Below, one piece after another: positions 8,552 through 8,589 of a DNA stretch of 64,000 nucleotides. Origin of the DNA: Escherichia coli (GTDB lineage Bacteria; Pseudomonadota; Gammaproteobacteria; Enterobacterales; Enterobacteriaceae); NCBI RefSeq assembly GCF_044324875.1, contig NZ_CP172185.1; one strand, given 5' to 3'. Position 1 is the stretch's first letter. Each line of letters opens with the position of its first letter. The position numbers and the translations under genes were made by a program. The notes beneath the pieces were generated by a model that saw only the letters and a program-made list of their open reading frames with translations, did not search any database and was not told where the DNA came from.

Positions 8552-8589
8552 CACTGTATAAAAATCCTATACTGTACGTATCGACAGTT
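8552..8589 (+). promoter_or_regulatory. Two LexA (SOS) boxes upstream of ydjM
   Basis: CACTGTATAAAAATCCTATA and TACTGTACGTATCGACAGTT; the second has perfect CTGT-N8-ACAG spacing. Confidence 0.65.

Follow-up and report, generated by a model that had tools for sequence, protein, structure and literature searches.

LexA operators upstream of ydjM and cho in the core chromosome of an Escherichia coli strain

Recognisable LexA operators precede two known SOS genes, ydjM and cho, in the stretch of Escherichia coli DNA analysed here (64,000 nucleotides; hereafter the window). Judged from their letters and surroundings, they are almost certainly the native operators of these genes on an E. coli-type chromosome, as the original prediction had proposed: they match the K-12 operators letter for letter, they score as LexA sites, and the positions given for them, 8552-8589 and 22984-23003, proved exact. 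The two operators are textbook SOS regulation in unchanged form and are already known as such. Two points deserve attention beyond this. The box at cho, which had been called noncanonical, is an SOS box of average strength, and a comparison across enterobacterial genera provides small, concrete support for selection keeping a weak distal site at ydjM and for an overlap of the likely -10 hexamer with the left LexA arm at both genes.

LexA boxes of ydjM and cho

The stretch 8552-8589 reads CACTGTATAAAAATCCTATACTGTACGTATCGACAGTT and consists of two 20-bp LexA-type boxes on the plus strand, offset by 18 bp and overlapping by 2 bp. The proximal box (8570..8589, TACTGTACGTATCGACAGTT) ends 14 nt from the ATG of ydjM and is a full CTG-N10-CAG palindrome. 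The distal box (8552..8571, CACTGTATAAAAATCCTATA) ends 32 nt from the same ATG (8604) and has a good left half-site, CACTGTAT, followed by a degenerate right half. The cho box (22984..23003, plus strand, CACTGGATAGATAACCAGCA) has the core CTGG-N8-CCAG at 22986-23001, and its end lies 13 nt from the GTG start codon (23017) and 3 nt from a GGAG Shine-Dalgarno sequence. All three boxes are intergenic, none of them reaching further than 52 nt upstream from the start of ydjM or cho. The inverted CTG...CAG arms of the gammaproteobacterial SOS box (TACTG-(TA)5-CAGTA), 10 bp apart, are present in the ydjM proximal box (CTGTACGTATCGACAG) and in the cho box (CTGGATAGATAACCAG); in the distal ydjM site the same check found the left CTG only, without a second CAG arm. 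Only the proximal ydjM box is therefore a full palindrome, the distal one being, by its letters, one good half-site joined to a likely -10 hexamer.

Both target genes are intact. ydjM (8604..9194, plus strand) encodes 196 aa and matches NCBIfam NF008651 with 375 bits (cut-off 216) and Pfam PF04307 (YdjM). cho, also known as ydjQ (23017..23904, plus strand), has a GTG start, encodes 295 aa and matches NCBIfam NF007833, excinuclease Cho, with 576 bits (cut-off 367). With both family matches above their cut-offs, the gene names first assigned to the two loci stand, and the RefSeq annotation of the corresponding regions in K-12 and ST2747 agrees with them. The boxes of both genes, two of them at ydjM, were reportedly described by Fernandez de Henestrosa et al. 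in 2000 together with evidence of LexA binding, and the characterisation of Cho is said to have been published by Moolenaar et al. in 2002. A review table of LexA-regulated E. coli genes enters both cho (ydjQ) and ydjM under 'Known SOS box' (PMC6590174 Table 1). In a K-12 RNA-seq study, the lexA dependence after AZT was 8.6-fold for ydjM and 5.1-fold for cho (PMC11228462 Table 1), although cho itself was not induced by AZT (0.77-fold) in that data set (PMC11228462). Ciprofloxacin raises the transcripts of both genes (PMC11002266), and the cho box was found de novo upstream of UV-induced genes (PMC3009722). In Salmonella, gfp fusions of ydjQ and ydjM gave no fluorescence and were left out of that analysis (PMC8072944).

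Comparison with K-12 MG1655, which the original prediction had suggested as a check, showed that all three boxes are 100% identical in the two genomes. The ydjM region agrees with K-12 without change from 8501 to the end of the alignment at 8619, past the ATG; K-12 ydjM (b1728) has the same two boxes at the same distances of 14 and 32 nt, and differs by a few substitutions upstream of 8501. The cho region agrees without change from 22973 to the end of the alignment at 23039, past the GTG. The 20-mer CACTGGATAGATAACCAGCA is the same at K-12 cho/ydjQ (b1741), and the single difference is found at 22972, 12 nt upstream of the box, where the window has C and K-12 and two other E. coli strains checked have T. 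The cho 20-mer of the window also agrees in every letter with the site published for cho (PMC3009722 Table 4).

The wider E. coli population was sampled with 50-mers centred on the sites in 5,426 complete genomes. The ydjM 50-mer is present in 5,417 of them and letter-identical in 3,611, and the cho 50-mer is present in 5,402 and letter-identical in 3,506. Five variant alleles were sampled, and their changes fall either at non-core (spacer) positions of the boxes (8582 C to T; 8565 T to C) or outside the boxes; none of the five carries a substitution in the CTG or CAG arms.

The bare pattern CTG-N10-CAG occurs 40 times in the window compared with 12.9 times in shuffles, a surplus presumably attributable to the frequent codons CTG and CAG. 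Since the bare pattern is too unspecific, a position-weight matrix was used instead. This matrix was symmetrised and built from 17 published LexA sites (PMC3009722 Table 4), with cho omitted and ydjM never in the set. It was run over all 63,981 positions of the window, and the chance expectation was taken from first-order Markov random sequences of 64 kb. The cho box ranks first with 19.28 bits (0.003 expected per random 64 kb), the ydjM proximal box second with 15.38 bits (0.087 expected) and the ydjM distal box fourth with 12.68 bits (0.44 expected). Low matrix scores, which would speak against LexA operators at these positions, were thus not found. In a leave-one-out analysis, the 18 published sites range from 6.4 bits (polB) to 27.2 bits (istR2). 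The scores of the ydjM and cho boxes all lie inside this range, the ydjM proximal box being on par with ftsK and uvrD and the distal ydjM site being borderline by itself.

Some other matches of the scan were set aside. The third-best match in the window, TGCTGTTTATTTTTTCAGGA at 42432-42451 (14.63 bits, 0.137 expected per random 64 kb), lies within a cytochrome b562-like ORF (42268-42657, minus strand); the island DNA there is AT-rich, and the match is probably due to chance. A match at 25362-25381 (11.3 bits), which lies in the spy-astE spacer and has no CAG arm, and another at 7024-7043 (6.4 bits), which lies at the end of yniA and has 12 bases in common with the cho box, were both judged to be at chance level.

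Putative promoters and the distal ydjM site

No promoter was detected at the ydjM or the cho locus when sigma-70 promoters and terminators were scanned for with strict settings. In a relaxed scan, the best candidate at ydjM is a putative -10 hexamer, TATACT (8568..8573, plus strand; C at -13), which spans the junction of the two boxes; the sequence around it, CCTATACTG, is 100% conserved in 81 sequences. The only candidate at cho is a putative extended -10 element, TGtTACACT (22979..22987, plus strand), the last four bases of which are shared with the start of the LexA 20-mer. It is kept as TGnTAYACT in Escherichia, Salmonella, Citrobacter, Leclercia, Kosakonia, Enterobacter and Yokenella. At both promoters, then, the likely -10 hexamer appears to run with its 3' end into the left box arm, (T/C)ACTG. 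The position of the -35 element of the putative cho promoter is occupied by GCCTCTTTTTTAA (22955-22967, 17 nt upstream of the cho box), which is present in 6 of the 7 genera, Yokenella having just GCCTCTTTTTT. The E. coli copy of this sequence is the 'motif 2' described upstream of UV-induced genes (PMC3009722).

The ydjM operator was compared in the upstream regions of 80 species from about 25 enterobacterial genera, giving an alignment of 81 sequences. The proximal CTG-N10-CAG is present in all 80 species, mostly with scores of 15-22 bits, and its CTG and CAG are 100% conserved in the 81 aligned sequences. In 77 of the 80 species, a further site scoring 9 bits or more precedes the proximal box at an offset of exactly 18 bp, and the distal ACTGTA is 97-99% conserved in the alignment. 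Mean column conservation is 0.95 in the distal box and 0.94 in the proximal box, compared with 0.70 in the intergenic DNA further upstream. By score alone, the distal ydjM box is not significant; its fixed 18-bp offset, together with its conservation in 77 of the 80 species, argues that it is no chance match. Two species (loci L021, with 3.7 bits, and L033, with no site) have lost the distal CTG and kept a strong proximal box, which fits an auxiliary role of the distal site. Double SOS boxes, in tandem or overlapping, are known from the lexA, recN and colicin operators, and ydjM likewise has two adjacent sites, with the difference that its second site is only a half-palindrome. In Salmonella, the two ydjM boxes lie 14 and 32 nt from the start codon and have heterology indices of 9.12 and 12.85 (PMC8072944). 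The proximal box itself differs in strength among genera: the Escherichia form (TACTGTACGTATCGACAGTT, 15.4 bits) is weaker than the form of most other genera (TACTGTATGAATTGACAGTT, 20.0 bits; loci L015-L089), and the common E. coli allele 8582 C to T shifts it toward the latter.

A conserved block, beginning with GAGTTACACCGTCACCACTTCCG (8524..8551, plus strand), is located directly upstream of the two boxes, where a -35 or an upstream promoter element would be expected. The mean majority fraction at 8530-8551 is 0.93 in the 80 species, compared with 0.70 in the rest of the intergenic region. This block contains no LexA motif, and the relaxed scan found no good -35 match in it.

The block bears on the strongest alternative to a LexA site at 8552-8571, namely that the distal box does not work as a LexA site at all and has been kept for the promoter (the -10 TATACT and an A-rich spacer) or for another regulator that also uses 8524-8551, SOS control being exerted by the proximal box only. 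Several observations are consistent with this possibility. First, the right half of the distal box, CCTATA, lacks a CAG and coincides with the likely, fully conserved -10 hexamer; the conservation of this half may be owed to the hexamer and not to LexA. Second, the upstream block is conserved to an equal degree (0.93) without any LexA motif. Third, the species represented by L021 and L033 lack the distal CTG and retain a strong proximal box, and RegPrecise gives a single site at ydjM. Nevertheless, the ACTGTA of the left half is 97-99% conserved despite its position in the spacer, a part of sigma-70 promoters that is under little constraint in sequence, and in 77 of the 80 species it keeps the same 18-bp register to the proximal box. 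Moreover, the distal sequence was scored as a second SOS box in the Salmonella study (PMC8072944), and it is given as an additional LexA site elsewhere (PMC4576408). We therefore regard a distal site without any function for LexA as unlikely. Another reading of the same features is that 8524-8551 and the distal half-palindrome together make up a binding site for another, as yet undescribed regulator, or that the half-palindrome serves as a LexA half-site in an unusual cooperative mode. This is somewhat less likely still; if true, ydjM would be under a combined control that has not yet been described. The preferred reading remains that of an auxiliary LexA site, which probably tightens the repression of ydjM by adjacent or cooperative binding.

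The cho box

The cho box had been singled out as a noncanonical variant, CTGG-N8-CCAG. The core was read correctly and the label does not hold. In the 17 published operators, the fourth base of the half-site is T in 26 of 34 half-sites and G in the other 8, G being the sole alternative to T. The same CTGG-N8-CCAG core is found at ruvA (PMC3009722 Table 4). The ruvAB operator (CGCTGGATATCTATCCAGCA) precedes another gene and differs from the cho box in the central 8 bp, and the two have similar leave-one-out scores, 18.3 bits for ruvAB and 19.3 bits for cho. Among the 18 known boxes, cho ranks 11th by leave-one-out score. Its published heterology index is 7.5, compared with 7.6 for ruvA and 7.4 for lexA (PMC11228462 Table 1); the heterology indices cited here are published values.

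Orthologous cho loci of Salmonella, Citrobacter, Leclercia, Kosakonia, Enterobacter and Yokenella provide a second line of evidence. In all six of these genera the best upstream site lies 12-13 nt before the same start codon and scores 15.3-21.9 bits; two of the compared annotations begin 27 nt earlier. Escherichia, Salmonella and Citrobacter have CTGG/CCAG arms, Leclercia and Enterobacter CTGT/ACAG, and Kosakonia and Yokenella CTGT/CCAG. The arms thus interchange at an otherwise fixed operator, which indicates that G at the fourth position is tolerated in a normal LexA site.

It could still be argued that the cho box is a truly noncanonical operator, with an affinity or a regulation unlike that of CTGT-N8-ACAG boxes. 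G and C do replace the consensus T and A at the fourth position of both arms, and the lack of AZT induction of cho in one K-12 data set (PMC11228462) would be in line with an unusual regulation. Against this, G occupies the fourth position in 8 of 34 published half-sites and the ruvA core is identical; the leave-one-out rank of 11 among 18 and a heterology index matching those of lexA and ruvA place the box in the middle of the known operators; and orthologous boxes swap freely between CTGG/CCAG and CTGT/ACAG. Such a special status is very improbable. The cho box is an SOS box of average strength, and the idea of an unusual box at this gene is dropped.

The least credible alternative, to which we give almost no weight, is that all three boxes are chance matches to a loose pattern, CTG and CAG being abundant in E. 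coli coding DNA: the 40 occurrences of CTG-N10-CAG in the window, a distal ydjM score expected 0.44 times per random 64 kb and a random-looking rank-3 match in the coding region of an island would agree with it, but the cho and ydjM proximal scores are expected just 0.003 and 0.087 times per 64 kb, each box precedes one of two known SOS genes at no more than 52 nt from its start codon, all three are identical to the K-12 operators, and cross-genus conservation is 0.94-0.95 in the boxes against 0.70 in the diverging flanking intergenic DNA. For the cho box and the ydjM proximal box, chance is effectively refuted.

Proposed repression model and chromosomal surroundings

The arrangement of the boxes suggests how the two genes would be controlled. 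In an undamaged cell, one LexA dimer would be expected on each full palindrome (8570-8589 at ydjM and 22984-23003 at cho). The predicted transcription starts, at about 8580 and about 22994, would lie inside these boxes. Because each box covers the end of the likely -10 hexamer as well as the predicted start, bound LexA should exclude RNA polymerase. At ydjM, a second LexA dimer would be expected on the abutting distal site (8552-8571), over the promoter spacer. RecA-stimulated self-cleavage of LexA is the established mechanism of the SOS response. Upon DNA damage, RecA filaments would accordingly be expected to promote the self-cleavage of LexA, the operators would be vacated, and ydjM and cho would be transcribed. 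The genes lexA and recA themselves lie outside the window. The published heterology index of ydjM is 9.0 (PMC11228462 Table 1). Together with the value of 7.5 for cho, this describes mid-to-weak operators, which should make both genes moderately repressed members of the regulon.

Over its left 36.9 kb, the window consists of E. coli core chromosome that runs colinear with K-12 from ydiY to ynjA; identity is 98-99% in the portion aligned to strain ST2747. In this core genome, the elements that place ydjM and cho under SOS control are intact despite two insertions of IS elements and a large island nearby. The IS elements are two 1310-bp copies of an IS3-family insertion sequence, at 15255-16564 and 33847-35156, which are inverted relative to each other and 99.7% identical. 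They have the ends TGAACCGCCCCGGG and 3-bp target duplications (GGC and TTG), and comparison with E. coli ST2747 shows that they interrupt chbG and ydjY. A match to the Rfam ALIL frameshift pseudoknot is present in each copy; by their length and ends the copies appear to be IS629-like. The two inverted copies are 18 kb apart and flank cho, so that inversion of the segment between them could occur.

The core chromosome ends right after ynjA and is followed by an island (36883-64000). The island contains a tyrosine integrase, decayed ICE genes (TIGR03756/03757), PhoX, transposase remnants and the adhesin/siderophore receptor gene iha. At least 80% of a 24-kb island query (36800-61000) was found in one place in only 25 of the 5,426 complete E. 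coli genomes. At the other end of the window, the counterpart of about 1496-3392 in ST2747, the closest complete genome, is annotated there as a frameshifted pseudogene of the type III effector espL1, located between thrS and yniD.

An Rfam scan of the whole window found no RNA family over the ydjM or the cho operator. Between nadE and cho, 75 nt ahead of the cho box, lies a match to the ES036 (CssrF) sRNA (22867-22909, plus strand), with a score barely over the threshold (38.9 compared with 37.6 bits).
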